The translations under genes were made by a program, and so were the position numbers. Under the pieces are notes generated by a model that had not been told where the DNA came from, searched no databases, and saw only the letters and a list, made by a program, of their open reading frames with translations. A stretch of DNA of 64,000 nt from Acidimicrobiia bacterium (lineage in GTDB: Bacteria > Actinomycetota > Acidimicrobiia > Spongiisociales > ZC4RG35): contig DASWKK010000098.1 of assembly GCA_036396655.1 (NCBI GenBank), positions 14,592 through 78,591 on the forward strand, in the 5' to 3' direction. Positions 43,401 through 64,000 of the stretch are shown here, piece by piece (within the stretch, counting starts at the first letter, position 1; each line of letters opens with the position of its first letter).

Positions 43401-44328
43401 TCCCCACCCCAGGCTCGCCCTCGACCAGGACCACCCCGCCGGGCCCCGCCAATACACGCTCCAGATGGTCGACCATGCTGCGTCGCTCGTGCTCGCGTCC
43501 AACGAAAGGGGTGGTCGAGCGTCCGGCCACGGGCAATGCCCGATGCTCCCCGGGCAGGGGTCGGATCCCCGCGCCTCGATGTCGCACGATCTTCTCGTAG
43601 AGCTCGGACGTGGCTTCCGAAGGTTCGGCGCCCATCTCCTCGGCCAGGACCGAACGACACCGATCGAACTGCTGCACCGCATCGCTGATTCGCCCGAGCA
43701 GGAAGCACAGCCGCATCACTTCCTGATGGGCTTCCTCGGAGAGAGGGTCGTAATGGGTGAGACGGCGGGCGTAGCCCAGTGCCTCCTCGTAGGCCCCGTT
43801 GGCCTTGGTCACGTCGACGAGTCGACTGAGAGCGACCAGGTATCGCTGGCGATAATGGTCCTGGTCGACCACCACCCAATCGTCGAAGAAACCGGCCAGC
43901 AGGTCGCCTCGATAGAGGTCGACACAAGATCGCAAGGCGGCAGCGTCGAGATCGGCTGCAGCTACTGCCTCGCCCCGCGATGGCTGGGTCGCGTCGAAGA
44001 AACGGTCGAAGTCCTCCACATCGAGCCAATAGGGACTGCTCGTGTCGAAGGCGAGTGTGTCGGCTGTTACTACCAGATGTGACGACTGACCGTCGCTCAC
44101 CGCGTCCTGGATCTGCCACAGCGTGTGGGAGAGGCGACGCCGCGCTTTGCCGTCGGGTAGGTCGGGCCAGAACGAGCCGGCCAACAGGTCCCGCTGCAAC
44201 GGGTGCCCCCTCTGCATCACCAGGTAGGCAAAAAGTGAGCGTCCCGCCCGCGAGACGATTGGGGGCAGGGCGACACCGCCGCGCTCCAGGAAGAACCCGC
44301 CAAAGAGGTGAATGCGAAGCGCCTCCAT
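40471..44328 (-). CDS. SARP/BTAD - NB-ARC-type ATPase - TPR regulator with an extra C-terminal DeoR-like HTH
   Basis: N-terminal winged helix plus BTAD ([10 protein letters not shown]...[10 protein letters not shown]). Walker [27 protein letters not shown] long TPR-like region. C-terminus [21 protein letters not shown]. Confidence 0.9.
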
Positions 44329-50430: not shown

Positions 50431-53400
50431 GTGGATTCGGGCGCACAGCCGAGCCCGTCCTCGTTGCGCGAGGAAGTCCTCGAGCGAATAGGCGAAACTT
50501 CGGAGCCGCTGGCCGCGTTGGCCCGCGCCTACCTTCATCGCATTCCCTGGGACGTGGCCCTCTCTCCCGACCTCGCATATCGAGAGGTAGTGGGACTGTT
50601 CGACTTCATCGAGAACCGCGTCGGCCCCGTTGCAGTGCGGGTTTTCAATCCCAGTGTCGCCATCCACGGCTATGAATCATCGGGCACGGTCGTCGAGATC
50701 CATGTCGACGACGGGCCCTTCCTGGTGGATTCGGTCACCGGCGAGCTTCATGCCCACGGGCTGGCGGTGGTGCGGGTGCTCCACCCTGTCATTGGGACAG
50801 TCCGGGACGCATCAGGTGCCCTGGTTTCGATTCAACCTGCCCGGGATGCAGCAACGAGAGAGTCGGTCCAGCACTACCTGCTCGACCGCACCCTCGACCC
50901 AGCCGACCATCTTTCCCTCGCGACACGTCTGGAGACCGTGCTCGGCGACGTGTTGCTCGCCGTACGTGACTTCCCGGCGATGATCGACGCCACCACTCGA
51001 ATGGCCGAGATGGCCCGGGCCGGTCGAGCCCACTATCCGGATATCGACGTCGAAGAGGCGGTGGCCTTTCTCGATTGGCTAGGCGACGAGAACTTCGTGT
51101 TTCTCGGCTACCGCGAGTACCGGATACTGACTCGACCCGACGGTCCGGTCGTGGAAACGGTCGCGGACTCGGGTCTCGGCATCCTCTCCGATCCCGCACA
51201 CTCCAGATCCTCCGAGCCAATCCCTCTTTCTTCGATGCCGCCGGAGCTTCGGCAGCGATACGAAGAGGGTGATCTGCTCACCATCACCAAGACCAATCGC
51301 CTCTCGACCGTGCATCGTCGGGCCAGGATGAACTACGTCGGGGTCCGGCTGGTTGGCCCCGAAGGTGAGACGGTGGGAGAAGCCCGGCTGCTAGGTCTGT
51401 TCACGTCCAAGGCCTATATGGAAAGCGTCTCGCGCATCCCCATTCTCCGCCACAAACTTGCCGAGATCATCTCCACAGGAGACCTCATCGAAGGCTCGCA
51501 TGATCACAAGGCCATCACAGCCTTACTCGAGAGCTTCCCCAAGGACGAGTTGTTCGGACTGCCGACTGAAGATCTCAGCAGTCTCCTGATGGGCTTGCTG
51601 GCCCTCGAAGAGCGGGCCAAGGTCCGGCTGTTCGTCCGGCGCGAGCTTCTCGACCGTGGGGTGCGGGTCCTGGTGGCGATGCCCCGGGAGCGCTACTCGG
51701 CGGAGCTCGCCGAGCGACTCCAGGATCTCTTCCTCGAACGTTTCGGAGGCTCCACGGTTGACCACCATCTCACCCTGGGCAAGAGCGACATAGCCCGACT
51801 CCATTTCGTGGTGTGGAATGCCAAGGGCAACATCCCCGACCCGGCATTCGAGGAGCTCGAAGCCGAGGTGATGGCACTCACCCGCTCCTGGGCTGAGCAT
51901 GTAGCAGGACAGTTGGATCTGCGGCACGATCCGGACGAAGCCAAGGCCATGGTTGGCCGCTGGGCGGCGCGGATGCCCGACTACTACAAGGCCTCGACTC
52001 CGCTGACCGTCGCCGCCGGAGACTTCGAGCGACTCGACGAGTTGATGGCAAGTGGGGCCCGATCTCTGGTTGGCCTTCAAAACGAAGATGCTGGACCCGA
52101 CATCCTGACCAGGGTCACCTTGTACGAGGTCCGCGGCAAGCGGCCGCTATCGGAGTTGACACCCGCCTTGGAGGACATGGGGATGCAGGTGGTCGAGGAG
52201 GTGTTCACCCGGCTGTCCGGCGATGAGAACTTGTTCATCCACGACTTCGGGGTCCTCGACGCCCAAGGGGAGCTGATCGACATCGAAACCGCCGGGGAGC
52301 GGATCGCACGCTGTCTGGAGGCGGTGTGGGCCGATCAAGCGGAAAGCGACTCCTTGAACCGGTTGGTGATGGTGGCCGGTCTCGATCACCATCAGGTAGG
52401 CATCCTGCGCGCCTACCACACCTACTGGCGGAGGGTCAGCTCCATCTTCACTGTGAACTACGTCAATGCCGCTCTGGTTGCGCATCCTGAGATAGCCGCC
52501 CGCCTGATCCGACTATTCGAGCTGAGATTCGATCCGGCCTTGGAGGGAGACGGACACGAGCAGCAGCGTATCGAGGTGCTCGAACGTCTCGACGCGGTTC
52601 CCTCACTCGACGAGGATCGCATCCTCAGGGGGTTCTTCCGCATGATCGAAGCCACCCTCCGAACCAACGCCTATCAACAGGACCGAGGGGCGCTGGCCAT
52701 CAAGCTGCGCTCAGCCGACATACCCGACATGCCCTCACCCAAGCCTTATGTCGAGGTGTTCGTGATCGGCGACGATGTGGAGGGAATCCATCTCCGCGCC
52801 GGTCCCCGGGCACGGGGAGGAATTCGGTGGTCAGAGCGGCGGGAGGACTACCGCACCGAGGTAGTTGGGTTGATGAAGGCGCAGATAACCAAGAACGCGA
52901 TCATCGTCCCCACCGGAGCCAAGGGCGGCTTCGTCCTGCGTCACACCCCCGAACCAGGAGCGATGAACGAAGCGGTGCGCTCCGCTTACGAGGTCTTCAT
53001 CAGGGGGCTCCTCGACATAACCGACAATCTGGTCGAAGGCGAGATCGTTCATCCCCGGAGTGTCCGGGTGCACGACGGCCCTGACCCCTATCTGGTGGTG
53101 GCCGCAGACAAGGGGACCGCCCGGTTCTCCGATCTCGCCAACCTGATCGCCGACGAATACGGGTTCTGGCTTGACGACGCTTTTGCCTCCGGCAGCGCCA
53201 CCGGGTACGACCACAAGGGTCTTGGCATCACCGCCCGGGGTGCTTGGAAGTCATTGGAGCGTCACTTTCTCACAGAGGGAATCGACCCTCACCGACACAA
53301 TTTCACCGCGGTGGGGATCGGCGACATGTCGGGTGATGTCTTCGGGAATGGCATGCTGGGCTCCGAGACCATCATGTTGGTGGCTGCGTTCGACCATCGC

Positions 53401-55188
53401 CATGTCTTCGTGGACCCCGACCCGGAGCCGGCGACCTCGTTTCAAGAGCGGAAGCGGATCTTCGATCTCCCGTCATCGAGCTGGGACGACTACGACCGGA
53501 GCCTCATCTCCGAAGGGGGAGGTGTGTTCGCCCGGTCGCTGAAGCAGATCAACCTGTCCGAGCCGGCGCGGATGGCGTTGGGCACCGAAGCCGGCGCCGT
53601 CACCCCGGCGGAGCTGATCCGGATCGTATTGAAGGCGCCGGTGGATCTGTTGTGGAACGGTGGAGTTGGCACGTACGTCAAGGCCACCGAGGAGACCCAC
53701 GAGCAGGTCGGGGACCGGAGTAATGACTCGGTTCGGGTCGACGGATCGGAAGTTCGCGCTCGGGTGGTAGTGGAAGGAGGGAACCTTGGCCTCACCCAGC
53801 GAGGTCGGGTGGAGTATTGCCAGACAGGAGGACGGATCAACACCGATTTCATCGACAACTCCGGTGGGGTCAACTGCTCGGATCGTGAGGTGAACCTGAA
53901 AATCCTCCTCCGTCTCGCCGAGCAGAGAGGTGAGATCGGGCGCAACGAGGCCGAGAAGTTGCGGGAGCGAGGCGCGGACAGCGTGGTGGAGGCGGTGCTG
54001 CTCGACAGCCTCGAGCAAACCCAACTCCTGGCGCGGGCGGAGCGCGCCTCGGCCGACTCAATGGATGCTTACGAACAGCTCATGGTGTCGCTCGAGCACG
54101 AAGGGATGCTGGTCCGTGACCTGGAATGGCTGCCCTCCACCCAGGGAATGACGGAACGGGCCCGGGCCGGCACCGGCCTCAGCGCACCGGAGTTGGCGGT
54201 GCTGGTGGCGTATGCCAAACGGAGTGTGGCCGATCAGGTGCTGGCATCTGATCTCCCCGACTCGCGCTCCATGCTCTCTGACCTGGCCAGCTACTTCCCC
54301 AACGAGATCAGCGAACGCTTCGGCGATCTGATCTGGGACCATCCGCTTCGTCGTGAGCTGATCTCGACCATCGTCGCCAAGGATGTGGTCGACTCCCAGG
54401 GCCCAACGTTCGTGCTCCGTCTGGTTCTGCGCAGCGGGGCAGCCCCCGCCGCAGTGGTCGCTGCCTATCGGGCCGCGCGCGATCTCGTGGGCGGCACAAT
54501 GCGACGACGGGAAATCGAGCAGTTGTTCGGCTCGGTCGATCATCGAGTGTGGAACGAGATGATGGACGCCAACGAGAGACTGGTCGGGGCGTTGACCCGC
54601 TGGCATCTCGGTCGCCTCCCCGGGAAACCTCTCGACGGCGTCGCCGATCTCGAGCACGAGATGGAGGAGTGGGGCTCGCCAGAGTGGCGTCAGGAGAGAG
54701 ACCAGCGAATCCAAGGTTTCGAAGCAGCCGGTGTCCCGACGGCCGTGGCCCGTCAGACGGTCTCCGCTTCCGACTTGTTGCATGGGCCCAACATCATCGA
54801 GGTTGCTCGCGCGTCCGGTCGCCCCCAGATCGATGTGGGCCGTGTTTTCCACCGAATCGGTCGTGTGCTCGGTCTCGACGACCTGGAGAAGGCGCTTTAC
54901 GAATTGCGGTCGGCAGACCCCTGGCAACGGTGGGCGCTCGAGACGATCGAGGACGACGCTCTGGCGGTCCGTCGCTCACTGGCGGAGCGAGTCCTAGGGG
55001 ACACCGGGCTGCCACCGGCCGACGAAGCCCTGGAACGGTTCCTTGCCGAGCGAGCCGACGCCGTAGCCAGGGTGGTCGAGCTGGTCCAATCCCTGGAGGC
55101 CGGAACCATCGGGGACACAGCTCCGCTGCTGGTGGTCATTCGTCAGATCCAGGCCCTGGCGAGCGACCATGACCGGACTGCAGAGTGA
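50431..55188 (+). CDS. large NAD-specific glutamate dehydrogenase (180-kDa class)
   Basis: 1585 aa. Catalytic block RGGIRWSERREDYRTEVVGLMKAQITKNAIIVPTGAKGGFV. Confidence 0.95.
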   Translation: MDSGAQPSPSSLREEVLERIGETSEPLAALARAYLHRIPWDVALSPDLAYREVVGLFDFIENRVGPVAVRVFNPSVAIHGYESSGTVVEIHVDDGPFLVDSVTGELHAHGLAVVRVLHPVIGTVRDASGALVSIQPARDAATRESVQHYLLDRTLDPADHLSLATRLETVLGDVLLAVRDFPAMIDATTRMAEMARAGRAHYPDIDVEEAVAFLDWLGDENFVFLGYREYRILTRPDGPVVETVADSGLGILSDPAHSRSSEPIPLSSMPPELRQRYEEGDLLTITKTNRLSTVHRRARMNYVGVRLVGPEGETVGEARLLGLFTSKAYMESVSRIPILRHKLAEIISTGDLIEGSHDHKAITALLESFPKDELFGLPTEDLSSLLMGLLALEERAKVRLFVRRELLDRGVRVLVAMPRERYSAELAERLQDLFLERFGGSTVDHHLTLGKSDIARLHFVVWNAKGNIPDPAFEELEAEVMALTRSWAEHVAGQLDLRHDPDEAKAMVGRWAARMPDYYKASTPLTVAAGDFERLDELMASGARSLVGLQNEDAGPDILTRVTLYEVRGKRPLSELTPALEDMGMQVVEEVFTRLSGDENLFIHDFGVLDAQGELIDIETAGERIARCLEAVWADQAESDSLNRLVMVAGLDHHQVGILRAYHTYWRRVSSIFTVNYVNAALVAHPEIAARLIRLFELRFDPALEGDGHEQQRIEVLERLDAVPSLDEDRILRGFFRMIEATLRTNAYQQDRGALAIKLRSADIPDMPSPKPYVEVFVIGDDVEGIHLRAGPRARGGIRWSERREDYRTEVVGLMKAQITKNAIIVPTGAKGGFVLRHTPEPGAMNEAVRSAYEVFIRGLLDITDNLVEGEIVHPRSVRVHDGPDPYLVVAADKGTARFSDLANLIADEYGFWLDDAFASGSATGYDHKGLGITARGAWKSLERHFLTEGIDPHRHNFTAVGIGDMSGDVFGNGMLGSETIMLVAAFDHRHVFVDPDPEPATSFQERKRIFDLPSSSWDDYDRSLISEGGGVFARSLKQINLSEPARMALGTEAGAVTPAELIRIVLKAPVDLLWNGGVGTYVKATEETHEQVGDRSNDSVRVDGSEVRARVVVEGGNLGLTQRGRVEYCQTGGRINTDFIDNSGGVNCSDREVNLKILLRLAEQRGEIGRNEAEKLRERGADSVVEAVLLDSLEQTQLLARAERASADSMDAYEQLMVSLEHEGMLVRDLEWLPSTQGMTERARAGTGLSAPELAVLVAYAKRSVADQVLASDLPDSRSMLSDLASYFPNEISERFGDLIWDHPLRRELISTIVAKDVVDSQGPTFVLRLVLRSGAAPAAVVAAYRAARDLVGGTMRRREIEQLFGSVDHRVWNEMMDANERLVGALTRWHLGRLPGKPLDGVADLEHEMEEWGSPEWRQERDQRIQGFEAAGVPTAVARQTVSASDLLHGPNIIEVARASGRPQIDVGRVFHRIGRVLGLDDLEKALYELRSADPWQRWALETIEDDALAVRRSLAERVLGDTGLPPADEALERFLAERADAVARVVELVQSLEAGTIGDTAPLLVVIRQIQALASDHDRTAE

Positions 55189-55238: not shown

Positions 55239-56519
55239 TCAGTGCCGGGCGGCGGGCAGGGCCAGGCGGAAGTAGCCGAGATCGCCTTGGCGCCGGTAGT
55301 CGAGACTGCCTCGCATCAGTAGGGCCAGCTGGCGGGAGATGGCAAGACCGATCCCAACCGATCCGGGCAAGCCGGGATTGTCAGCTATCCGGTAGTAGGG
55401 CTCGAAGATCCTCTCCCTTTCGATGTTGGCCAAGACCGGGCCATCGTCGGCAACGTCCACATACACCCGGCCGTCGTCGCTGGTGACGCGAACGGTCACG
55501 GTCGAGCCGCCGTAGCGCTCGGCGTTGGTGAGCAGGTTGCGTAGGATCTGTCGGATTCGCGTCGGGTCGCCGATCGCCCAAATCGGGTCGGCTTCGGACT
55601 CGACGGTGACGTCCGCGGTGAACGAGCCTCCGGCTTGCAACGTCTTGACAAGCTGAGCGGCGACGTCGAAGCGAATGTTGGCGACTTCGAGCTGACCCAT
55701 ATCGGCCCTCGCCGCGACCAACAAGTCCTCCACGAGGTCGGCGACTTCCTGGGAGTACTGGACAATCGACGAGATCATCAATGCGCGGTCGTCGTCATTC
55801 AGAGTCCGGTCATCCTCGATGATGCGAGCGAACCCCAGAATCGCAGTCAGAGGTGTCCGGATCTCGTGACTGACCGAGGCAAGAAACCGGTTCTTGGCCT
55901 CCATCAGCTCCTGCATGCGGCGCTCCTCGTTCCGGTGACCGGTCACATCGAAGACGGTGAACACGACTCGCGAGAAGTCGGGCTCACCATCGATCAGTGG
56001 TGCCGACAAGATCGACTCGGCGTCGTAGATCTTCCCGTTGGCCGTCGCTGCGGTGTATGAAGAATGGGCTTCGGGCTCTCGATTCCAGACGGCATCGAGC
56101 TGATTGAGCCATCCGCCCTCGGAGCCCTCGTTGACGATCCGGGGGTCGATTGGTCCGATCAACGACTCCAAAGGCAATCCGACCGCGATCACCGCTGCCG
56201 GATTGGCAGCCACGATTCTGATCATCGGGACGATTTCCCGGATCGCTTCGATGTCGTCGCCCAAGTGCTCCCTCAGACTGGTCACTCCTTGGTCCCGGAG
56301 ACCTCCCATCCAGTCTTCGAGCGCCGAGTAATCCTGTTCCATGATGGGCACAGGCGAGATGCGGAAGAGATTCTCGAAGCTCGACCAGCCTCGCATTGCG
56401 TCGATCGATTCGAGGCCGGCCTCATCCCATTTCAGATAACGCTGATTTACCGCCTCGACGAGACGGTCCCACGATGCTTGATCGGGTGATCCGTCGTCGG
56501 TGAGAGTGAGACTGGCCAT
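55239..56519 (-). CDS. cytoplasmic sensor histidine kinase (PAS-like N-terminus)
   Basis: H-box SHEIRTPLTAILGF, N-box LLTNAERYG, G-box GSVGIGLAISRQLA. No TM helices and no adjacent response regulator. Confidence 0.85.
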   Translation of the reverse strand: MASLTLTDDGSPDQASWDRLVEAVNQRYLKWDEAGLESIDAMRGWSSFENLFRISPVPIMEQDYSALEDWMGGLRDQGVTSLREHLGDDIEAIREIVPMIRIVAANPAAVIAVGLPLESLIGPIDPRIVNEGSEGGWLNQLDAVWNREPEAHSSYTAATANGKIYDAESILSAPLIDGEPDFSRVVFTVFDVTGHRNEERRMQELMEAKNRFLASVSHEIRTPLTAILGFARIIEDDRTLNDDDRALMISSIVQYSQEVADLVEDLLVAARADMGQLEVANIRFDVAAQLVKTLQAGGSFTADVTVESEADPIWAIGDPTRIRQILRNLLTNAERYGGSTVTVRVTSDDGRVYVDVADDGPVLANIERERIFEPYYRIADNPGLPGSVGIGLAISRQLALLMRGSLDYRRQGDLGYFRLALPAARH

Positions 56520-56697
56520 CTCGGCCTCGAGTCGGGGATGGAGCCTCTTCTGTCTCGAGCTCACTTTCACTCGAAAGGGACCGGCAACAGGGGCGGCTGT
56601 GCAGATGGAGGCATGACCTGGTATCGGCAGAAACGGCTCTCTTGTTGAGTGGGGCAGCCCGGCCCCTCTTCCTGTCACAGGAAGGAAGGCAATCGCC

Positions 56698-59181
56698 TCA
56701 CTCGTCCCCTTCGGGCTCTGGCTTGATCACCGGCTGCATCTCGGTGGTGGTTGGGAACGACCGGTGCCAACCGGAGCCCTCCACCACCCTCCTGGTGAGT
56801 CGACGCCATGCCTCCGGCTCTGTCGGAGGATGCTCGCGGAGAAGCTCCGGGACCACTTTGGCCCATCCCACCGCCCGAAGGGCAAAGATCATCACCGTGC
56901 CGGTGACCGCCACGATCCCCACCGCAGCGAGCAGGACTACGGTCCTGGGCAAGTCGAGTGCGAAGAAGTCCCGCAGTGGCGGGCTCGCCATCACCACCAC
57001 CAAGCTCCCGGCCATAGTGGCGATCAGGCCCTTCTTCCATGGGACCAGTGGCCGACTGACGATGCCCAGGGCGAAGAGCCCGATAGCGGCGAGGATGAGG
57101 GTTGCGGTAGTGCGGGACTCGCCGATCGATGATCTTTCGAGGTCGGCAAGCCAATACCCGGCAAAGGTTGCAAACGTTGCCACCAACCCGGTCGGTGCTG
57201 CGAATTTGAGAACCCGAAGCACGAACCCCGATCTGGTCCGGCGGCGGGAAGGGGCAAGGGCGAGGAAGAAAGCCGGGATGCCAATGGTGAGACTCCCGAC
57301 CAGGGTCAGATGGCGGGGGAGGAACGGAAACGGCAGGGTGGAGCCGACGATTGCCAAGGAGAGGCCAAGGGCATAGACAGTGCTGGTGATGAAGAGGTTG
57401 GCAACCCTTTCGATGTTTGAGGTGACCCTTCGCCCCTCCCCGACGATTCCGGGGAGGCTGGCGAAACGACCGTCGATGAGAACCAGCTGGGCCACGGCGC
57501 GCGACGCTGGCGCCCCACCACCGATGGCGATCCCGATGTCCGAGACCTTGAGGGCGAGGACGTCGTTTACACCGTCCCCGGTCATCGCCACGACGTGACC
57601 TCTGGCCTGCATGGCGCGCACCATGGCACTCTTCTGGTGGGGCGCCACCCGGCCGAATACGTTGCTTCGCTCCATGATCGCGGCCAGTTGGTCGAGGTTC
57701 TTGGGGAGGCGACGCGCATCCACGACCTCGTCGGCCCCATCGACGCCCACCTCTCTGGCCACCGCCCCGACTGTCTCTGGGTGGTCTCCCGAGATCACCT
57801 TGACCCGGATCCCTTGGTCGGCGAAGTAGCGGAGCGTCTCGGCAGCATCGGACCGCACCTGGTCGGAGAGAACCAGGATGGCCACCGGCGCCAGATCTGG
57901 CGGGAGTTGCCCGTCGCTCAGCGGTGTCTCGCCCCTGCCCAGCAGGAGGACCCGATTGCCACCTGCGGAGACGCCGGAGGCGACGTCCATGGCTCTTCCG
58001 TCCCTGGGGGCGACGATGTCTGGGGCCCCGATGACCCAGGTGCCGTCACCGAAGAAGGTGACTCCGCTCCATTTGCGCGCCGATGAGAAGGGGACCGCAG
58101 TTTGCACACCCCAACCGGGGCTCTCGGGGAAAGCAGAGGCGATCGCAGTCAAAGTGGCGTTCGGATGCGGCTCGGCTGCGGCGATGGCCGCCAACGCCGG
58201 GAGCGGGTCCTGCTCGGTGAGGAGAATCACCTCTTCGACCGTGAGCCGTCCTTCGGTCAAGGTCCCGGTCTTGTCGAAGCAAACGGTGTCGACCCGGGCC
58301 AGCCCTTCGATCGCAGGAAGCTCCTGGACCAGGACGTTGCGTTTTCCCAACCTGATCACCCCAACCGCGAAGGCAATCGAAGCGAGCAAGACCAGGCCCT
58401 GGGGGATCATTGCCACCCCGGCCGCCACCGCACCACCGAGACCTTCGAGGAAGGTGCCCCCACCCCGGATGGAGCTCCACACCAGAAGGGCGCCCATCGG
58501 CACCACAGCCCAGCTGACCACCCCGAGGATCCAGTCGATGCCCTCGCGGAGCTCGGATCGCACCAGAGTGAATCGTTTGGCGGCGTGAGCGAGCCGGGCG
58601 GCATACGAGTCGTTGCCCACCCGGGTGGCCCGGTAGCGCCCGGAGCCGGCAGCCACGAAGCTTCCCGACAGACAGTGGTCATCCGCACTCTTGAGCACCG
58701 GATCCGCCTCTCCGGTGAGCAGCGACTCGTCGATCTCCAATCCGCGAGAGGTGACCACCACGCCGTCAACAGCGAGTTGATCGCCCGACCGGAGCTCGAT
58801 CAGATCGTCGACGACGATCTGATCGACCTGCTGTTCGGAGACTGTCCCCGATCGCATCACCCGCACCCGGGGCGAATTGAGGAGCTCCAGCCGATCCAAG
58901 GTCCGCTTCGCCCGCAGTTCCTGGATCGTCCCGATGGCGGAGTTGGTCAGAAGGACGATCCCGAAAAGAGCGTCCCGGGGCTCACGCAAGACGAGGAGAA
59001 CGACGATGACCAGCGCACCGAGAAGGATGTTGAATCGAGTGACGACGTTGGCACGGATGATCTCTCCCGTGGTCCTGCTCGGGCTCTCGGCCACCTCGTT
59101 GACCAACCCGGCCGCGATCCTCTGGCGAACCTCGGCGGGGGTGAGTCCTTCTTCGGGAGTGGCTAGCTCGGTGATCGTCAT
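56698..59181 (-). CDS. cation-transporting P-type ATPase
   Basis: CFDKTGTLTEG phosphorylation site, TGEADPV, and the MTGDGVNDVLALK hinge. Confidence 0.9.
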   Translation of the reverse strand: MTITELATPEEGLTPAEVRQRIAAGLVNEVAESPSRTTGEIIRANVVTRFNILLGALVIVVLLVLREPRDALFGIVLLTNSAIGTIQELRAKRTLDRLELLNSPRVRVMRSGTVSEQQVDQIVVDDLIELRSGDQLAVDGVVVTSRGLEIDESLLTGEADPVLKSADDHCLSGSFVAAGSGRYRATRVGNDSYAARLAHAAKRFTLVRSELREGIDWILGVVSWAVVPMGALLVWSSIRGGGTFLEGLGGAVAAGVAMIPQGLVLLASIAFAVGVIRLGKRNVLVQELPAIEGLARVDTVCFDKTGTLTEGRLTVEEVILLTEQDPLPALAAIAAAEPHPNATLTAIASAFPESPGWGVQTAVPFSSARKWSGVTFFGDGTWVIGAPDIVAPRDGRAMDVASGVSAGGNRVLLLGRGETPLSDGQLPPDLAPVAILVLSDQVRSDAAETLRYFADQGIRVKVISGDHPETVGAVAREVGVDGADEVVDARRLPKNLDQLAAIMERSNVFGRVAPHQKSAMVRAMQARGHVVAMTGDGVNDVLALKVSDIGIAIGGGAPASRAVAQLVLIDGRFASLPGIVGEGRRVTSNIERVANLFITSTVYALGLSLAIVGSTLPFPFLPRHLTLVGSLTIGIPAFFLALAPSRRRTRSGFVLRVLKFAAPTGLVATFATFAGYWLADLERSSIGESRTTATLILAAIGLFALGIVSRPLVPWKKGLIATMAGSLVVVMASPPLRDFFALDLPRTVVLLAAVGIVAVTGTVMIFALRAVGWAKVVPELLREHPPTEPEAWRRLTRRVVEGSGWHRSFPTTTEMQPVIKPEPEGDE

Positions 59182-59277: not shown

Positions 59278-59430
59278 GTGAATTCTGAGCCCATAGTCCC
59301 GGTCCCGCCCCCACCCCCCGAACGGAACCGAGTCCTCCGGGGCTGTCTCATCGCCCTCGCCATCATCGGAGGTCTGGTGATCCTCGTCGGCGGCATTTGT
59401 GTCTTCCTCGTGATCAACTCGGGCCTGTGA
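59278..59430 (+). CDS. 50-codon ORF: Pro-rich N-terminus plus one TM helix
   Basis: VNSEPIVPVPPPPPERNRVLRGCLIALAIIGGLVILVGGICVFLVINSGL. GC3 is very high. Its TGA overlaps the GTG of the next gene (GTGA at 59427-59430). Below the ORF-track cut-off. No obvious SD. Confidence 0.4.
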   Translation: MNSEPIVPVPPPPPERNRVLRGCLIALAIIGGLVILVGGICVFLVINSGL

Positions 59431-60242
59431 TCCCGCTCCTGTTCCATCTCGGCCCCTTTGCGGTGGCCACCCACGACTTCTTTGTGGTCCTCGGTGTGGC
59501 CACCGCGATATTGGTGCTCTGGCTCAGGGCCAGGGGGCGGCCCCGCGACCCCGATATGCCGGCTCTGGTCGGCGGGGGTCTGCTCGCCGGAGCCGTCTTC
59601 GCCAAACTGGGCACGGGCTGGCAGTACTTCGCCCTCGCCGACGATCCCAACCTGTTCGGGCTGTGGCTGTACGGGGGCCAAAGCGTTCTCGGAGGTCTCG
59701 CCGGGGCCTATCTCGGCGTGGTCCTGACCAAGCGGCTCATCGGGTATCAGGGCTCCACCGGATACCGGTTTGCCCCGGCCGTGGCGGCAGGGCTGGCCGT
59801 CGGGCGGGTGGGGTGCTTTCTCACCGAGCAGATCGGGTCCTCGACCACGATGCCCTGGGGCATCACCGTGTCCGCGGAGACAGCAGCCGGGATGGCCTAC
59901 TGCCCGAGTTGCGCTGCTGGGCTCCCGATGCATCCTTCGTTCCTCTACGAGATCATCTTCCACGTCGCCGCATTCGTGGTGCTCACACGCCGCGCGGACC
60001 GCTTCGGTGAGCCGGGAGATGGTTTCAAGCTCTACCTGTTGGGTTATGCGCTGTTTCGATTCGGCGTCGAGTTCGTGCGGGACAATCCGGAGATGGCACT
60101 CGGGTTGACCGGATCGCAGGTCTTCCTGTTGGCCACGGTTCCCGTCGGGCTGATCTACTACCTGCGGCGAAGAGCGGATGGTGGCCGGTACCCGAGCACT
60201 AGGCCCCTAAAGGTTCCCGTTCTGGTAGAGCAAGAGAGATGA
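59427..60242 (+). CDS. lgt: Lgt-family (prolipoprotein diacylglyceryl transferase-like) membrane protein, divergent
   Basis: LGPFAVATHDFFVVLG, GGQSVLGGLAG, GRVGCFLTEQ, HPSFLYE and LGYALFRFGVEFVR follow the Lgt block order. TTG 59397 is the alternative start. Confidence 0.8.
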   Translation: MIPLLFHLGPFAVATHDFFVVLGVATAILVLWLRARGRPRDPDMPALVGGGLLAGAVFAKLGTGWQYFALADDPNLFGLWLYGGQSVLGGLAGAYLGVVLTKRLIGYQGSTGYRFAPAVAAGLAVGRVGCFLTEQIGSSTTMPWGITVSAETAAGMAYCPSCAAGLPMHPSFLYEIIFHVAAFVVLTRRADRFGEPGDGFKLYLLGYALFRFGVEFVRDNPEMALGLTGSQVFLLATVPVGLIYYLRRRADGGRYPSTRPLKVPVLVEQER

Positions 60243-61807
60243 CCGGCGGCATGCCCGTCAGGGAAGACCGCATCCTCCGCTATGTCAACGCGTTCTGCCC
60301 GCATTGCCATGAGGAGGAGCCACAGCGCTCGCTTCACGAGGTACAACGTCTCAGCGGCTATCTATCCGAAGCGGAGGGGCAGGTGTGGCTGGTCCGGGGC
60401 TGTCCCCGACACGGCAAGGTGGTGACCCATTATGACGAAGACCCCGAGATCCTTCAGTATCTCGAGCAGTGGACCGCGCCGACCAAGGTCCACGTTCCCG
60501 ACACGCCGGGCAACTACGCCCCGGTGCCGTCGGCCTACCTGGGTGGCTTGGGAGAGATGCAGACCCAGCACACCTGCATCCTGCTCGAGGACATCAACGA
60601 GAGCTGCAACCTCAATTGTCCGACGTGTTATGCCGGCTCCAGCCCGCAGTTGAGTGGTGTGGCCACCGTCGAGGAGATCACGGCCAACATCGACCAGAGG
60701 CTAGCCAGAGAGGGAGGACGTATCGATGTGCTCATGCTCAGCGGTGGGGAGCCGACCATCCATCCCGACTTCGCGACCATCCTCCAAGCCGCTCTCGAGC
60801 GCGACGTGGTTCGCATCCTGGTCAACACCAACGGAGTCACTCTGTCTCGTGACGACGAGCTCTTGGATCTGTTTCGCTCGCATCGGGACCGGGTCGAGAT
60901 CTACCTCCAGTTCGACGGGTTTCGCAAGGAGACCTATCTCCACCACCGCGCCGCCGACCTGCGCACCATCAAAGAACGGGCGCTCCACCGGCTCAGTGAC
61001 GCCGGTGTCTTCACCACGTTGACCATGACCGCCGCTCTCGGGGTGAACGACGACGAGATTGGGCAGGTGGTGCTCACGGCATTGGAGACTCCCTACGTGG
61101 GAGGCGTCTCCATCCAGCCTCAGTTCGGTTCTGGTAGGTCGGGACCGATCAACCCACTCGAACGGCTCACCCATACCGGAGTGCTCAAACGTCTCGGGCC
61201 ACAGACTGGTGGCGTGGTCGACTGGATGGACTTGACCGCACTCCCGTGCTCTCACCCTCATTGCGCCAGCGTCGGGTACATGATCCGATCCGACAATGGG
61301 GAGTGGAGATCGCTGGCCAGGGTGATCGGGCACGATCGACTGAAACAGCATCTCGGCCTGATCAGCAATCGGATCAACGACACCGAGCTCACGACGGAGC
61401 TCCAGGAGCTGGTCAAGGCCTCATTGCTCGGTCTGCTCAGCGAACAGACCTCGCTCAGCCGCCCCACGGTCCTCGACCTGTTTCGCGACGTGTGCGAAGC
61501 CTGCGACCTCGGGTTGAGCACGCTGCTCAAAATGGCCTCCGGATCCAAGCGGCGGCACGCAATGATGCGGGAGATGGTGGGGACGCGGATCAAACGAATC
61601 ACGGTCAAGCCGTTCATGGACATGAACACCATGCTCGAGGAGCGGCTGTTGCAATGTTGTGTCCATGTCGGGACCAGGTCGGTCGACCAGGACCAGTGCG
61701 CTCCGTTCTGTGCGGTGCAGGCGTGGCGGCCACTGGGCGAGATGAAGATCGCCGAAGCGACCCGCAGAACCGGGAACCGCTCCATCCCGCTGGTGATCGC
61801 ACCATGA
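60239..61807 (+). CDS. radical SAM enzyme with N-terminal CxxC...CxxH ribbon and Cys-rich C-terminal domain (Tes/GDGT-MAS-like layout)
   Basis: ATGA overlap with lgt. CPHC...CPRHG. The radical SAM triad CNLNCPTC. GGEPT. YLQFDG. Further Cys groups PCSHPHC, CEAC and QCCVHVG...QCAPFC. Confidence 0.9.
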   Translation: MTGGMPVREDRILRYVNAFCPHCHEEEPQRSLHEVQRLSGYLSEAEGQVWLVRGCPRHGKVVTHYDEDPEILQYLEQWTAPTKVHVPDTPGNYAPVPSAYLGGLGEMQTQHTCILLEDINESCNLNCPTCYAGSSPQLSGVATVEEITANIDQRLAREGGRIDVLMLSGGEPTIHPDFATILQAALERDVVRILVNTNGVTLSRDDELLDLFRSHRDRVEIYLQFDGFRKETYLHHRAADLRTIKERALHRLSDAGVFTTLTMTAALGVNDDEIGQVVLTALETPYVGGVSIQPQFGSGRSGPINPLERLTHTGVLKRLGPQTGGVVDWMDLTALPCSHPHCASVGYMIRSDNGEWRSLARVIGHDRLKQHLGLISNRINDTELTTELQELVKASLLGLLSEQTSLSRPTVLDLFRDVCEACDLGLSTLLKMASGSKRRHAMMREMVGTRIKRITVKPFMDMNTMLEERLLQCCVHVGTRSVDQDQCAPFCAVQAWRPLGEMKIAEATRRTGNRSIPLVIAP

Positions 61808-62109
61808 GCGGGAGAACATCGCCCCCATCGGCGTTCGATCCGGTGACACCTCCCAGACCGGAATTGTTCGACCCGTTCCGGCTCTGTGTGTACACCACCG
61901 TGGCGGTGCTCGCCTGGTTGCTTACCCCGGCCGCCGTCGTAGCCCTGTTCAGTGGGGTGGCGCTGGTGGCCTACCTCCGTGCCCGGCGAGCCGGCCTGGT
62001 CAAGTCGAAGTGCAAGCTCGGGGACACCCGGCTGGTGATGGCATATCTGACGGTGGCGTTCTTGGCTGGCGTCTACTTCTCGGTGCAGCGGCTGACCACG
62101 ATGTTTTGA
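61804..62109 (+). CDS. small polytopic membrane protein (101 aa)
   Basis: ATGA overlap with the radical SAM gene. Two or three TM helices (VYTTVAVLAWLLTPAAVVALFSGVALVAYL, LVMAYLTVAFLAGVYF). Confidence 0.6.
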   Translation: MSGRTSPPSAFDPVTPPRPELFDPFRLCVYTTVAVLAWLLTPAAVVALFSGVALVAYLRARRAGLVKSKCKLGDTRLVMAYLTVAFLAGVYFSVQRLTTMF

Positions 62110-62145
62110 TGCTCGGCGGCGATTGGGATTGGCTCGTCGCCTCCG

Positions 62146-62151
62146 TATATT
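62146..62151 (+). promoter_or_regulatory. -10-like TATATT, 9 nt before ATG 62161
   Basis: A rare AT-rich hexamer in the 51-nt gap. Confidence 0.2.
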
Positions 62152-62160
62152 TCGCTCGCG

Positions 62161-64000
62161 ATGCAGACAATTCTGTTCACCGACATCGAGTCGAGCACCC
62201 GTTTGTGGGAGGAGCAACCCGGAGAGATGACGGTGGCGCTGGCTCGACACGATTCCATCCTCACCGAAGCGGTGGAACACGGCCACGGCCAGGTGGTCAA
62301 GACCACCGGCGACGGCATGATCGCGGTATTCGACTCGGTGGCCGACGCGATCGTCACCGCGATTCGCGCCCAGAAGGCCCTCCACGCCCAAGAATGGGGG
62401 CCGACCGGCTCGCTTCGGGTCCGCATGGGAGTCCACAGCGGGGACACCGAGAGCCGCGATGGTGATTACTTCGGGCCGGCGATGAACCGCACCGCCCGGA
62501 TCATGGCGGCTGGCCACGGGGGCCAGGTGCTCCTGTCTGGAACCGCCGCTCGTCTCGCCGAGGTCAGCCTGCCAAAAGGCACCGTCCTGCGGGACCTGGG
62601 GACCCATCGGCTCAAAGATCTGACGCTGCCCGAGCATCTCTATCAATTGGTCCATGATGATCTTGAATCCGACTTCCCGGCACCGGGCACTCTCGATGCC
62701 AGACCGCACAACCTCCCCCTGCAGACCACCGAGTTCCTCGGGCGGAGCAACGAGATGGCATCTATCCGGGTCATGCTGGAATCTCCGAGCACCCGACTGT
62801 TGACGATCGCCGGGCCTGGTGGAGCCGGCAAGACACGTCTCGGTCTCCAGGTGGCCGCCGAGCAGATCGATCGTTTCCCCGATGGAGTGTTCTTTGTCGA
62901 CCTATCGGCGGAGCGTGATCCCGACGCCGCCTTCGAGACGATCGTCCGCACCCTCCACCTCCCCATGTCGGGAGGCGGTGAACCGCTGGGAATGCTCAAG
63001 ACCAGATTGCGGGACCTCCAAATGCTGCTCCTGCTGGACAATCTCGAACAGGTGACCGCCGCGGCGGTCGGTCTCTCAGAACTTCTTCAGAGCGCACCAG
63101 GGCTGAAGATCATGGTCACCAGTCGAGAGACATTGCGGGTCCGTGCCGAACACGTCTTCCCGGTTCCCCCTCTCTCGCTTCCCCACCCCAAGGATGATGC
63201 AGCTTCGGTGGCAGAGTCGGAGTCGGTGCAGCTGTTCACAGAGCGCGCCCGAGTTGTCCGACCCGGGTTCGCCATCACCGAAGAGAACGCCGCCGTGATC
63301 GCCGAAATCTGCCTTCGTCTCGATGGGCTCCCCCTTGCCATCGAGCTGGCCGCGGCTCGGCTCAAGGTGTTCACGCCATCCGATCTCCTGGACCGGCTCC
63401 GGGAGAGGCTCGACGTCCTCGGAGCGGGCGGCCGGGACCTGCCCGACAGGCAACGCACCCTGTGGGGGGCGATCGGATGGAGCTTTGAGCTGCTCGATCG
63501 GGACGAGCGCGAGATTTTCGAGCTGATGTCCGTGTTCTCCTCGGCCGACCTGCCGGCCATTGAGGCGGTATCGGCCTCGGCGCTCGATGTCGCCGACGTA
63601 GTGGACGCCCTCTCCTCTCTGGTGGACAAGAGCCTGATCAGAAGTGATGACCGCGGCCCCTCCCAACGCTTCTCGATGCTTTTGATGATCAAGGAGTACG
63701 CCGAGACACGGCTCGCCGAGTCCTCACAACGCGATCTGGCTGTCCGACGAGCCCACGCTCTTCACTTCTCGGGCTTCGCCCAACGTCTGCAAGAGCGGCT
63801 GCGTGGCGTCGACCACGATGCTGCTCTCGACGAATTGGCGTCGGAGATCGGCAACCTGAGGACCGCCTGGCGCTTCTGGGTCGATCAGGGTGACCTGGAG
63901 CAGCTGTTCCAGCTCATCGACGGTCTCTGGGCGTTGCACGAGGCCAGAGGCTGGTATCACGCTGCAATCGAGCTCGCCACTGACACTCTCGCAGTCCTGG
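62161..64000 (+). CDS. class III adenylate/guanylate cyclase domain fused to an NB-ARC-type ATPase and helical/TPR region (partial; continues past the window)
   Basis: My own translation gives no stop from ATG 62161 to the window end. ILFTDIESSTRLWEE...VVKTTGDGMIAVF...VRMGVHSGD...DYFGPAMNRTARIM cyclase blocks. Walker A IAGPGGAGKTRLG. LLLLDNLEQV. Not in the ORF track because it is open-ended. Confidence 0.85.
   Translation, partial: MQTILFTDIESSTRLWEEQPGEMTVALARHDSILTEAVEHGHGQVVKTTGDGMIAVFDSVADAIVTAIRAQKALHAQEWGPTGSLRVRMGVHSGDTESRDGDYFGPAMNRTARIMAAGHGGQVLLSGTAARLAEVSLPKGTVLRDLGTHRLKDLTLPEHLYQLVHDDLESDFPAPGTLDARPHNLPLQTTEFLGRSNEMASIRVMLESPSTRLLTIAGPGGAGKTRLGLQVAAEQIDRFPDGVFFVDLSAERDPDAAFETIVRTLHLPMSGGGEPLGMLKTRLRDLQMLLLLDNLEQVTAAAVGLSELLQSAPGLKIMVTSRETLRVRAEHVFPVPPLSLPHPKDDAASVAESESVQLFTERARVVRPGFAITEENAAVIAEICLRLDGLPLAIELAAARLKVFTPSDLLDRLRERLDVLGAGGRDLPDRQRTLWGAIGWSFELLDRDEREIFELMSVFSSADLPAIEAVSASALDVADVVDALSSLVDKSLIRSDDRGPSQRFSMLLMIKEYAETRLAESSQRDLAVRRAHALHFSGFAQRLQERLRGVDHDAALDELASEIGNLRTAWRFWVDQGDLEQLFQLIDGLWALHEARGWYHAAIELATDTLAVL

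Follow-up and report, generated by a model that had tools for sequence, protein, structure and literature searches.

Why should the gene for a homologue of the diacylglyceryl transferase Lgt overlap the gene for a radical S-adenosylmethionine (SAM) enzyme, with a gene for a tiny membrane protein on either side of the pair? The question is raised by four open reading frames (ORFs), a, b, c and d, which occupy positions 59278-62109 (+) of a 64,000-nucleotide (nt) stretch, hereafter the window, of contig DASWKK010000098.1 from an Acidimicrobiia bacterium (assembly GCA_036396655.1). Lgt, by which the lipobox Cys of prolipoproteins receives a diacylglyceryl group from phosphatidylglycerol, has so far been regarded as a housekeeping enzyme with one function, and also as a target for antibiotics. 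An earlier note on this DNA had described the four ORFs as a translationally coupled membrane module joined by three 4-nt start/stop overlaps, and all four ORFs and all three overlaps are present.

ORF a (59278..59430, +, 50 aa, GTG start) encodes a small membrane protein, b (59427..60242, +, 271 aa, GTG start) an Lgt-like paralogue, c (60239..61807, +, 522 aa) a radical SAM enzyme (rSAM) and d (61804..62109, +, 101 aa) a second small membrane protein. The stop codon of a overlaps the GTG start of b in a GTGA (59427..59430, +), and ATGA overlaps join the stop of b to the start of c (60239..60242, +) and the stop of c to the start of d (61804..61807, +). Automatic ORF calling stretches the b frame upstream to a TTG at 59397, but the GTG at 59427 is the better start because homologues align from the residue that it encodes as residue 1, and because the 4-nt overlap of a and b recurs in other Acidimicrobiia loci (our loci L004, L005, L006 and L008); L004 also has the same c/d junction. 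The G+C content of third codon positions (GC3) is 0.76-0.81 across all four ORFs, against 0.79 in the neighbouring ATPase gene.

Conservation of the module across phyla

A species-level scan, with one genome for each species, found at least 577 relatives of the rSAM, of which the best 80 were examined together with loci obtained from look-ups; synteny was tested by tblastn and by all-against-all clustering of ORFs. In 76 of 82 loci the gene immediately upstream of that for the rSAM is the Lgt-like one. The loci without this pair are ended by contig ends, or contain an Lgt-like fragment only (L025), and wherever b and c are not contiguous, the DNA between them holds a gene for a small membrane protein. 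Protein d is encoded directly downstream of the rSAM gene in 68 loci, and one relative (P0333) has the alternative gene order rSAM-d-Lgt-like. Clustering of the ORFs in the examined loci detected no other gene family common to the module neighbourhoods across taxa. The synteny of b and c across these loci means that the module is conserved beyond chance adjacency, and its carriers number at least several hundred species.

Synteny of the genes extends over 83 related loci from four phyla, Actinomycetota, Chloroflexota, Gemmatimonadota and Acidobacteriota, between which the rSAM is 63-70% identical, and a distant form is found in a fifth, the Bacteroidota. Carriers in the Actinomycetota include Acidimicrobiia, Nocardia, Mycobacterium, Mycolicibacterium, Nonomuraea, Microbispora, Janibacter and Nitriliruptoria, among others; in the Chloroflexota they are Herpetosiphonaceae, Oscillochloris and Chloroflexaceae, and in the Acidobacteriota Blastocatellia and Thermoanaerobaculia. 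The family is abundant in Mycobacterium and Mycolicibacterium, and its mycobacterial members include M. kansasii, M. decipiens and M. simiae. The closest public relative among the matches listed is an Acidimicrobiia soil metagenome-assembled genome (MAG; L004), with an rSAM 97% identical to that of the window. The junctions overlap by 4 nt or are a few bases apart in organisms as different as the window bacterium, M. kansasii, Persicobacter and Chondrinema. In the Oscillochloridaceae MAG that has only an Lgt-like fragment (L025, 4303-5001), the last ~50 Lgt-like residues alone are detectable between the genes for an a-like protein and the rSAM, where ~700 nt are available, and this may be a frameshifted or degenerate copy.

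Plasmid-borne copies came to light when plasmid records were searched at the protein level. With two genes for a-like proteins in tandem, the whole module is present on two large mycobacterial plasmids, pS2b of M. avium subsp. hominissuis (L086, NZ_CP076860.1), which is of mobilizable type (MOBP) and from human sputum, and pJCM12687 of M. branderi (L090). The mycobacterial plasmid modules adjoin IS110 or IS200/TnpB insertion sequence (IS) elements, and that of M. branderi also adjoins two DUF3558 genes. A replicon of Nonomuraea gerenzanensis also carries the module. The plasmid location and the neighbouring IS elements fit with horizontal spread of the module and, in the mycobacteria, the Lgt-like gene on the plasmid must be an extra copy.

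A distant version of the module, in which rSAM identity falls to 27-29%, is encoded on plasmids of two Bacteroidota, Chondrinema litorale and Persicobacter psychrovividus. Their gene order is Lgt-like, rSAM and a small protein of 64 or 59 aa, with overlapping or near-abutting junctions. The small proteins end in VIGAGVCGSFF or VIGTGICGSLLS, and the Lgt-like proteins again have a His at the position of E. coli Lgt Y26, together with a GRIGCF motif. Since the triad recurs in such a distant form, the ancient core of the module consists of the Lgt-like protein, the rSAM and an a-like protein, and protein d is an addition specific to the clade of the window. Just upstream of the Lgt-like gene on the C. 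litorale plasmid is a gene (L085, 3679-4194) for a 171-aa protein with a signal peptide and a FLIDTGSS motif; by eye it looks like an aspartic protease of the retropepsin type, and processing for the module could be its role.

The Lgt-like paralogue and the radical SAM enzyme

The earlier note had taken b for a divergent member of the Lgt family and c for a radical SAM enzyme with additional cysteines, and both assignments hold. The Pfam LGT domain matches residues 3-245 of b with model positions 1-238 of 240 (E 9.8e-31), and b matches E. coli Lgt in the Protein Data Bank (PDB 5azb, E 1e-7). Its likeness to canonical Lgt (E. coli, PDB 5AZB/5AZC; PF01790, TIGR00544), known from sequence alone, thus extends over nearly the full length of the LGT domain; in contrast, b scores only 70.1 bits against the NCBIfam lgt equivalog TIGR00544 (cut-off 118.9), and it is below every NCBIfam lgt cut-off, as are the M. 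kansasii and Chondrinema copies.

The nature of this divergence is evident from an alignment of 72 rSAM-linked Lgt-like proteins to E. coli Lgt. The position of Y26 is His in all 72 (His16 in the window copy, codon 59472-59474), N146 is Cys in all 72 (Cys130, codon 59814-59816, in the motif GRVGCF), H103 is Leu in 69, the window copy included, and R73 is Ala in 71. The residues tied to phosphatidylglycerol binding and transfer are kept, as in canonical Lgt: G142, R143, E151, G154, H196-P-S, Y235, R239, E243 and R246 are each present in 72/72, among them the four residues of the C-terminal helices (R239, Y235, E243 and R246). The three replaced residues Y26, H103 and N146 have been described as essential or active-site residues in E. 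coli Lgt (PMC13251419), and the b family lacks the full canonical signature, G142-R143-x-G-N146...E151...G154 combined with Y26 and H103. A CPxC motif is found in the outward-facing head region of 64 of the 72 proteins, that of the window among them. Unlike canonical Lgt, the family is always accompanied by an rSAM gene and a mini-protein with a Gly-x-Cys (G-x-C) motif, and it is never beside lsp or lnt in the loci examined. By these sequence features the Lgt-like proteins are a distinct paralogue class.

It could be argued that b is a housekeeping lgt that lies by chance beside unrelated genes, since it has the Pfam LGT domain and public annotation names its relatives 'prolipoprotein diacylglyceryl transferase'. 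We regard this as extremely improbable. The gene is syntenic across five phyla, the proteins score below all lgt equivalog cut-offs and have family-wide changes at residues that are essential or in the active site of E. coli Lgt (PMC13251419), and copies are found on plasmids; chance adjacency of a housekeeping lgt is ruled out by the synteny and residue data together. When the 64-kb window was searched by tblastn, with part of E. coli Lgt or the window's own Lgt-like protein as query, no second lgt was detected.

Second copies of lgt have been noted before. About 1,300 genomes have one, mostly unexplained, and the 2026 study that reported them found N146C in distant Lgt proteins and described the second Lgt of Mycolicibacterium smegmatis, MSMEG_5408, which has Y26H and N146C, as of 'presumed low Lgt activity' (PMC13251419). 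MSMEG_5408 is dispensable for growth (10.1101/2025.01.07.631728). It shares both substitutions with the b family and, from these two published substitutions alone, we infer by analogy that it may be a member of the family with an adjacent rSAM gene. M. smegmatis is not named among the top 120 relatives of the M. psychrotolerans and M. wolinskyi Lgt-like queries. A literature search on MSMEG_5406-5410 found no gene identity and only one expression value, for the hypothetical gene MSMEG_5406, two genes from MSMEG_5408, which is ~9-fold down under TPEN zinc starvation (PMC7174638 table).

The rSAM encoded by c has Pfam matches to Radical_SAM (E 3e-20) and to Zn_ribbon_HMPTM (PF23545, E 2e-8), a name that derives from the former designation, HMPTM, of the protein MJ0619 (PMC9433317). 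No hydrophobic or transmembrane (TM) segment was found in c. A rubredoxin-like motif, C20-x2-C23...C55-x2-H58 (60296-60412), and the radical SAM motif CX3CX2C at C123/C127/C130 (60605-60628) are invariant in the family alignment, and there are further invariant cysteines at positions 113, 337, 342, 419, 422, 473, 474, 487 and 491. The only full-length sequence relative in the PDB is MJ0619 itself (7TOL, E 6e-33, ~21% identity), known as GDGT-MAS or Tes, the archaeal tetraether lipid synthase, which joins two lipid tails at their terminal carbons. An AlphaFold2 (AF2) model of c, of low confidence (mean predicted local distance difference test, pLDDT, 60.5, with residues 79-140 and 460-522 below 50), likewise gave 7tol/7tom as the first Foldseek matches (E 3e-21, TM-score 0.57-0.63), and later matches covered the radical SAM core only. 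As the models of c and d are of low confidence, they have been used for fold class and helix boundaries only.

The description of c as Tes-like in the earlier note appears correct with respect to overall architecture, the four-domain fold of 7TOL/7TOM being the best match, but is not correct with respect to orthology. The enzyme shares with Tes (MJ0619; 7TOL, 7TOM; NF045702) the rubredoxin-like motif, the CX3CX2C and the C-terminal cysteines C473, C474 and C491, yet it scores 142.7 bits against the NCBIfam Tes model NF045702, for which the cut-off is 450. It has no counterpart of the [4Fe-4S]N ligands of Tes, C73, C77 and C80 (together with a His in Tes), which align with VPSAYLGGLGE, a segment that is invariantly non-Cys, whereas the Bacteroidota rSAM keeps CPYDCGLC in this region. 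Tes Met439 is replaced by an invariant Lys457 and Tes Tyr459 by an invariant Val477; both residues are reported to be completely conserved in 1000 archaeal GDGT-MAS homologues (PMC9433317). Relative to Tes, c has gained the invariant cysteines C337, C342, C419, C422 and C487, plus C113. The invariant cysteines of c could accommodate three [4Fe-4S] clusters and, in addition, one Fe of rubredoxin type. Its hosts are bacterial and largely aerobic, and its gene is always paired with the Lgt paralogue. Moreover, the acidobacterial Tes homologues proposed for the synthesis of brGDGTs (branched glycerol dialkyl glycerol tetraethers) show 40-42% identity to archaeal Tes (PMC8941075), so that c is far more distant from the archaeal enzyme than they are. 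By sequence comparison, c belongs to a distinct subfamily, apparently of GDGT-MAS-like build, and is not a Tes ortholog.

Since GDGT-MAS is the sole full-length relative of the rSAM, the module might serve a pure lipid pathway that makes a modified glycerolipid, either joined tail to tail (diabolic-acid-like and membrane-spanning) or a macrocyclic diacylglycerol. The Lgt-like protein would then be a subunit that binds or delivers lipid, or would transfer diacylglycerol to a non-protein acceptor, and a and d would be structural or redox subunits and not substrates. A role in making membrane-spanning lipids has been proposed for Tes homologues of bacteria, and iso-branched acyl tails end as phytanyl tails do (PMC8941075). 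The identity to archaeal Tes is only ~21% here, however, against the 40-42% of the brGDGT-linked homologues (PMC8941075). Met439 and Tyr459, as described above, are lost in c. Membrane-spanning lipids are not known from the module carriers Nocardia, Mycobacterium or Nonomuraea, and such a pathway leaves unexplained why cysteines are the sole invariant residues of a and d. We therefore consider it doubtful, though not far-fetched.

The best-scoring curated model for c is in fact TrsS, a radical SAM (seleno)protein family (NF045646), but c reaches only 193.5 bits against a cut-off of 490, and unlike TrsS its ORF is uninterrupted, with no in-frame TGA. The Bacteroidota module rSAM scores 341 bits against the same model, also below the cut-off. 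Related TrsS/Tes-like rSAM systems are encoded on plasmids of one bacterium, M. vanbaalenii (L087, 3977-6345), and one archaeon, Haloarcula halophila (L088, 3983-6093). There the rSAM gene is translationally coupled to a gene for a DVU_1556-family (ArsM-like) methyltransferase, not to an Lgt-like gene, and the neighbours include genes for redoxin, protein disulfide oxidoreductase and CcdA. No Pfam match to a SPASM or twitch domain was found in c, and families that mature RiPPs (peptides made by ribosomes and modified after translation) match only its radical SAM core, with 28-44 bits against cut-offs of 170-850. The enzyme reaches the cut-off of no curated cofactor or RiPP family in NCBIfam. 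Neither of the two outcomes that, by the earlier note, would have refuted its reading, a lack of synteny elsewhere and a housekeeping Lgt beside an rSAM of a known cofactor or RiPP pathway, was observed in the loci and databases covered.

The small membrane proteins and their cysteines

The 50-residue peptide that the earlier note had singled out as proline-rich and spanning the membrane once is a genuine, conserved component of the module. ORF a, the GC3 of which is 0.76, encodes a protein that is Pro-rich at the N-terminus, contains basic residues and has a single TM helix that ends in VGG-I-C41-VFLVINSGL, with the Cys41 codon at 59398-59400. L004, L006 and L008 encode orthologs of 47-50 aa, the genes of which likewise overlap that of the Lgt-like protein by 4 nt, and the counterpart in L005, listed as 100 aa, has the same overlap. 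No curated Pfam or NCBIfam family matches a above noise.

Although the N-terminus of the a-like proteins is variable and often Pro-rich, the C-terminus is constant, with a basic loop, the last helix, the G-x-C motif and a short tail. It ends in ...SVGFCTGLNPELYT in mycobacteria, ...YGTCLIIIAKST in Gemmatimonadaceae, ...FFGICLAIIYSSY in Herpetosiphonaceae and ...LVGGICVFLVINSGL in ORF a of the window. A rule-based scan identified 82 such proteins in 71 of 84 loci. Relative to the Cys, a Gly stands at position -2 in 80 of the 82, a Lys or Arg precedes it by ~21 residues, and the residue at -1 is bulky rather than Gly, Ala or Ser; the tail has a length of 6-17 aa. The motif rule matches 81 of 1583 frames (5.1%) in the zone upstream of the rSAM gene, compared with 14 of 4792 (0.3%) elsewhere on the same strand and 12 of 6764 (0.2%) on the other strand, a ~20-fold enrichment; the rule is of our own making, so that the Cys and a nearby Gly are partly built in, but the fixed -2 position and the enrichment over controls are not. 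The gene lies upstream of b (in the window, other Acidimicrobiia and Nonomuraea, often in two copies) or between b and c, and it is often duplicated beside the module. In the actinobacterial proteins the tail after the Cys is conserved (C-TGLNPELYT) and the last helix is glycine-rich (GLGLGLMIGW), resembling a helix-packing surface, as would suit the structural role that a pure lipid pathway would assign to a.

Protein d is also without a curated family above noise in Pfam or NCBIfam. Its relatives form a small and specific group, which at 50% identity comprises 114 clusters in a set of 1.84 billion representatives. Its first hydrophobic stretch opens with DP-x-R-x-C28 (C28 codon 61885-61887) and is broken at a near-invariant Pro42, and ahead of the last helix comes a basic loop, RAGL..S.C70.L.D.RLV (C70 codon 62011-62013). 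Among 56 diverse representatives, no residues other than C28 and C70 are invariant. The AF2 model, of low confidence (pLDDT 67), places helices at 24-38, 44-62 and 75-100, and by the positive-inside rule the basic loop would face the cytoplasm. Three records in which d seems to be fused to other domains (P0313, P0316 and P0333) were rejected as merged or frameshifted calls in high-GC DNA, and P0321 is an unrelated repeat protein. The earlier note had regarded a and d as two tiny membrane subunits. They are indeed membrane proteins, but not mere anonymous subunits, since cysteines are the only invariant features of both and make them candidate substrates or thiol partners.

Many rSAM enzymes form thioethers derived from cysteine, and the small proteins of the module are short, encoded next to the enzyme, sometimes duplicated and conserved mainly at cysteines, which speaks for a RiPP-like maturation. 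In such a system the rSAM would cross-link the Cys of the small protein, through a thioether or otherwise, and the Lgt-like enzyme would add a lipid to give an anchored or released lipopeptide; the conserved actinobacterial tail after the Cys would fit with this. We nevertheless consider it quite unlikely. The enzyme has no SPASM or twitch domain and reaches the cut-off of no RiPP-maturase family, its predicted fold appears to match that of a lipid enzyme, no protease or exporter is conserved near the module in the clustered loci, and the conserved part of a is a TM helix and not a soluble core peptide.

A further explanation sees in the cysteines a membrane-spanning thiol, metal or electron relay in support of the rSAM clusters or a metal(loid) substrate, with the Lgt-like protein as a scaffold that would have lost its transferase activity. 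N146C is invariant, and the Lgt-like protein, a and d each bring cysteines at defined membrane depths; related rSAMs adjoin CcdA, redoxins and ArsM-like methyltransferases, and the second Lgt of M. smegmatis is the one with presumed low activity (PMC13251419). However, the invariance of R143, R239, E151, Y235 and E243 in the paralogue family argues for retained catalysis, and no metal-handling gene is conserved beside the module. We think a relay very unlikely.

A proposed mechanism, its neighbourhood and its meaning

The simplest reading of a lipobox-like helix in a, together with a lipid-donor side that is kept in b, is that the two form a private enzyme-substrate pair. The four products probably work jointly on a lipid or on a protein linked to one. 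We propose that the module encodes one co-translated membrane machine, consisting of the core triad and, in the clade of the window, of d with its two invariant cysteines. The Lgt-like enzyme would keep the residues for phosphatidylglycerol binding and transfer, with its substrate side remodelled by Y26H, H103L and N146C. Its private, signal-peptide-like substrate would be the last helix of a, in which a basic loop on the inside and ~20 hydrophobic residues would place the G-x-C, as a non-canonical 'lipobox', at the outer leaflet, and the enzyme would add a diacylglyceryl group to the cysteine of this motif. The a-like proteins are unlikely to be clients of the housekeeping Lgt/Lsp pathway because their box is non-canonical, with its bulky -1 residue and short tail. 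Protein d could hold the cytoplasmic rSAM at the membrane, perhaps via its cysteine-bearing loop. GDGT-MAS makes its lipid-tail bond through an auxiliary cluster (PMC9433317), and the rSAM of the module may similarly take a hydrogen from an unactivated carbon of a lipid tail, with a C-C or C-S bond as the outcome. What would result is a lipid anchor that is cross-linked or macrocyclic, or else a conjugate of lipid and protein.

That the Lgt paralogue performs thiol-lipid chemistry on a and the rSAM performs radical chemistry on the lipid tail is the explanation we favour, but tentatively, and we would put its likelihood somewhat short of even. The more specific version, a new type of protein lipidation in which the G-x-C mini-protein is the anchor, the bond is a Tes-like C-C or C-S bond and the product is macrocyclic or membrane-spanning, we regard as unlikely, if worth stating. 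The earlier note had suggested radical modification of a lipid or lipoprotein anchor, a suggestion with which the present evidence is consistent. Gene composition, coupling, synteny across phyla, residue conservation and predicted fold class are what has been observed, whereas the identity of the substrate, the lipidation of a, the role of d and the bond formed are steps that we infer.

Several observations weigh against this mechanism. The loss of Met439, Tyr459 and the N-terminal cluster cysteines means that Tes-type C-C coupling is not assured in c, and the pairing of its rSAM relatives with ArsM-like methyltransferases and redoxins indicates that chemistry varies within the superfamily. 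It is not obvious what the invariant N146C would do in plain Lgt-type transfer, and a substrate shared between an Lgt active site that faces outward and an rSAM that is cytoplasmic needs explaining. In many a-like proteins, the window copy included (C-VFLVINSGL), the G-x-C cysteine is several residues inside the helix, and might just as well act as a ligand or redox partner or in packing. Protein d is absent mainly in Mycobacterium and Mycolicibacterium, most mycobacterial loci being without it, and the models of c and d on which fold class and helix boundaries depend are of low confidence. Finally, residue 113 of the window Lgt-like protein (59763-59765), at the position of E. coli D129, is Tyr (TAC), whereas Asp is found in 70/72 of the family and in the L004 protein, which is 93% identical to the window copy; this could be a strain-specific and possibly impairing substitution, or an assembly error.

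The closest known parallel to the proposed substrate that we have considered is the MYXO-CTERM type of C-terminal cysteine signal. As in a, an invariant Cys lies next to a C-terminal TM helix, and a non-canonical lipidation of the Lgt type has been proposed to act on it (PMC11980579). The differences are that the MYXO-CTERM Cys precedes the helix on a large secreted client that then meets a sortase-like protease, whereas a is a tiny protein, with the Cys at the end of its helix and an rSAM as partner enzyme.

Downstream of the module in the window, 51 nt 3' of d, begins a gene (62161-64000, +, running off the window) for a protein in which a class III nucleotidyl cyclase domain is joined to an NB-ARC/AAA STAND module; the cyclase-STAND assignment of the earlier note is corroborated by Pfam Guanylate_cyc and NB-ARC domains. 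A sigma-70-like promoter match is located at 62123-62151, inside the 51-nt gap, and a scan for promoters and terminators upstream of ORF a gave nothing informative. On the other side are a P-type ATPase gene (56698-59181, -), divergent from the module, a gene for a large NAD-specific glutamate dehydrogenase of 1585 aa with ACT1-3 domains (50431-55188, +) and, on the strand opposite to the latter, a histidine kinase gene (55239-56678). None of these flanking genes, ATPase, kinase, glutamate dehydrogenase or cyclase-STAND, is conserved beside the module at other loci. Farther upstream (40471-44328, -) is a gene for a 1285-aa regulator of the SARP/LuxR-like STAND type with BTAD, AAA_16, TPR and C-terminal HTH domains, so that two large STAND-type signalling genes, this one and the cyclase-STAND gene, are encoded within 22 kb.

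Each of the two enzymes comes from a known superfamily, but we found no description of their combination in the literature searched, nor any described system of like composition there or in Pfam and NCBIfam, in agreement with the earlier note. Pfam and NCBIfam have no models for this Lgt subclass, the rSAM subfamily, a or d, and the literature search found nothing that joins Lgt, the diacylglyceryl transferase, with Tes or GDGT-MAS. When a 2026 review of lipid-modifying radical SAM enzymes was searched for Tes homologues from bacteria, only Mss came up.

What the module means for the Lgt family is that one class of second lgt copies, that with Y26H and N146C, is not spare but locked to a Tes-like rSAM and to cysteine mini-proteins, so that the long-standing loose end of second Lgt copies becomes a concrete system that can be tested in bacteria open to culture. 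The known reach of the GDGT-MAS/Tes family grows as well, which bears on the use of bacterial 'Tes homologues' as tetraether markers in environmental genomics. Were the more specific version, the new type of protein lipidation, to hold, the Lgt family would gain its first function outside housekeeping, and Tes-type chemistry would be met for the first time in common aerobic bacteria, Nocardia and Mycobacterium among them.

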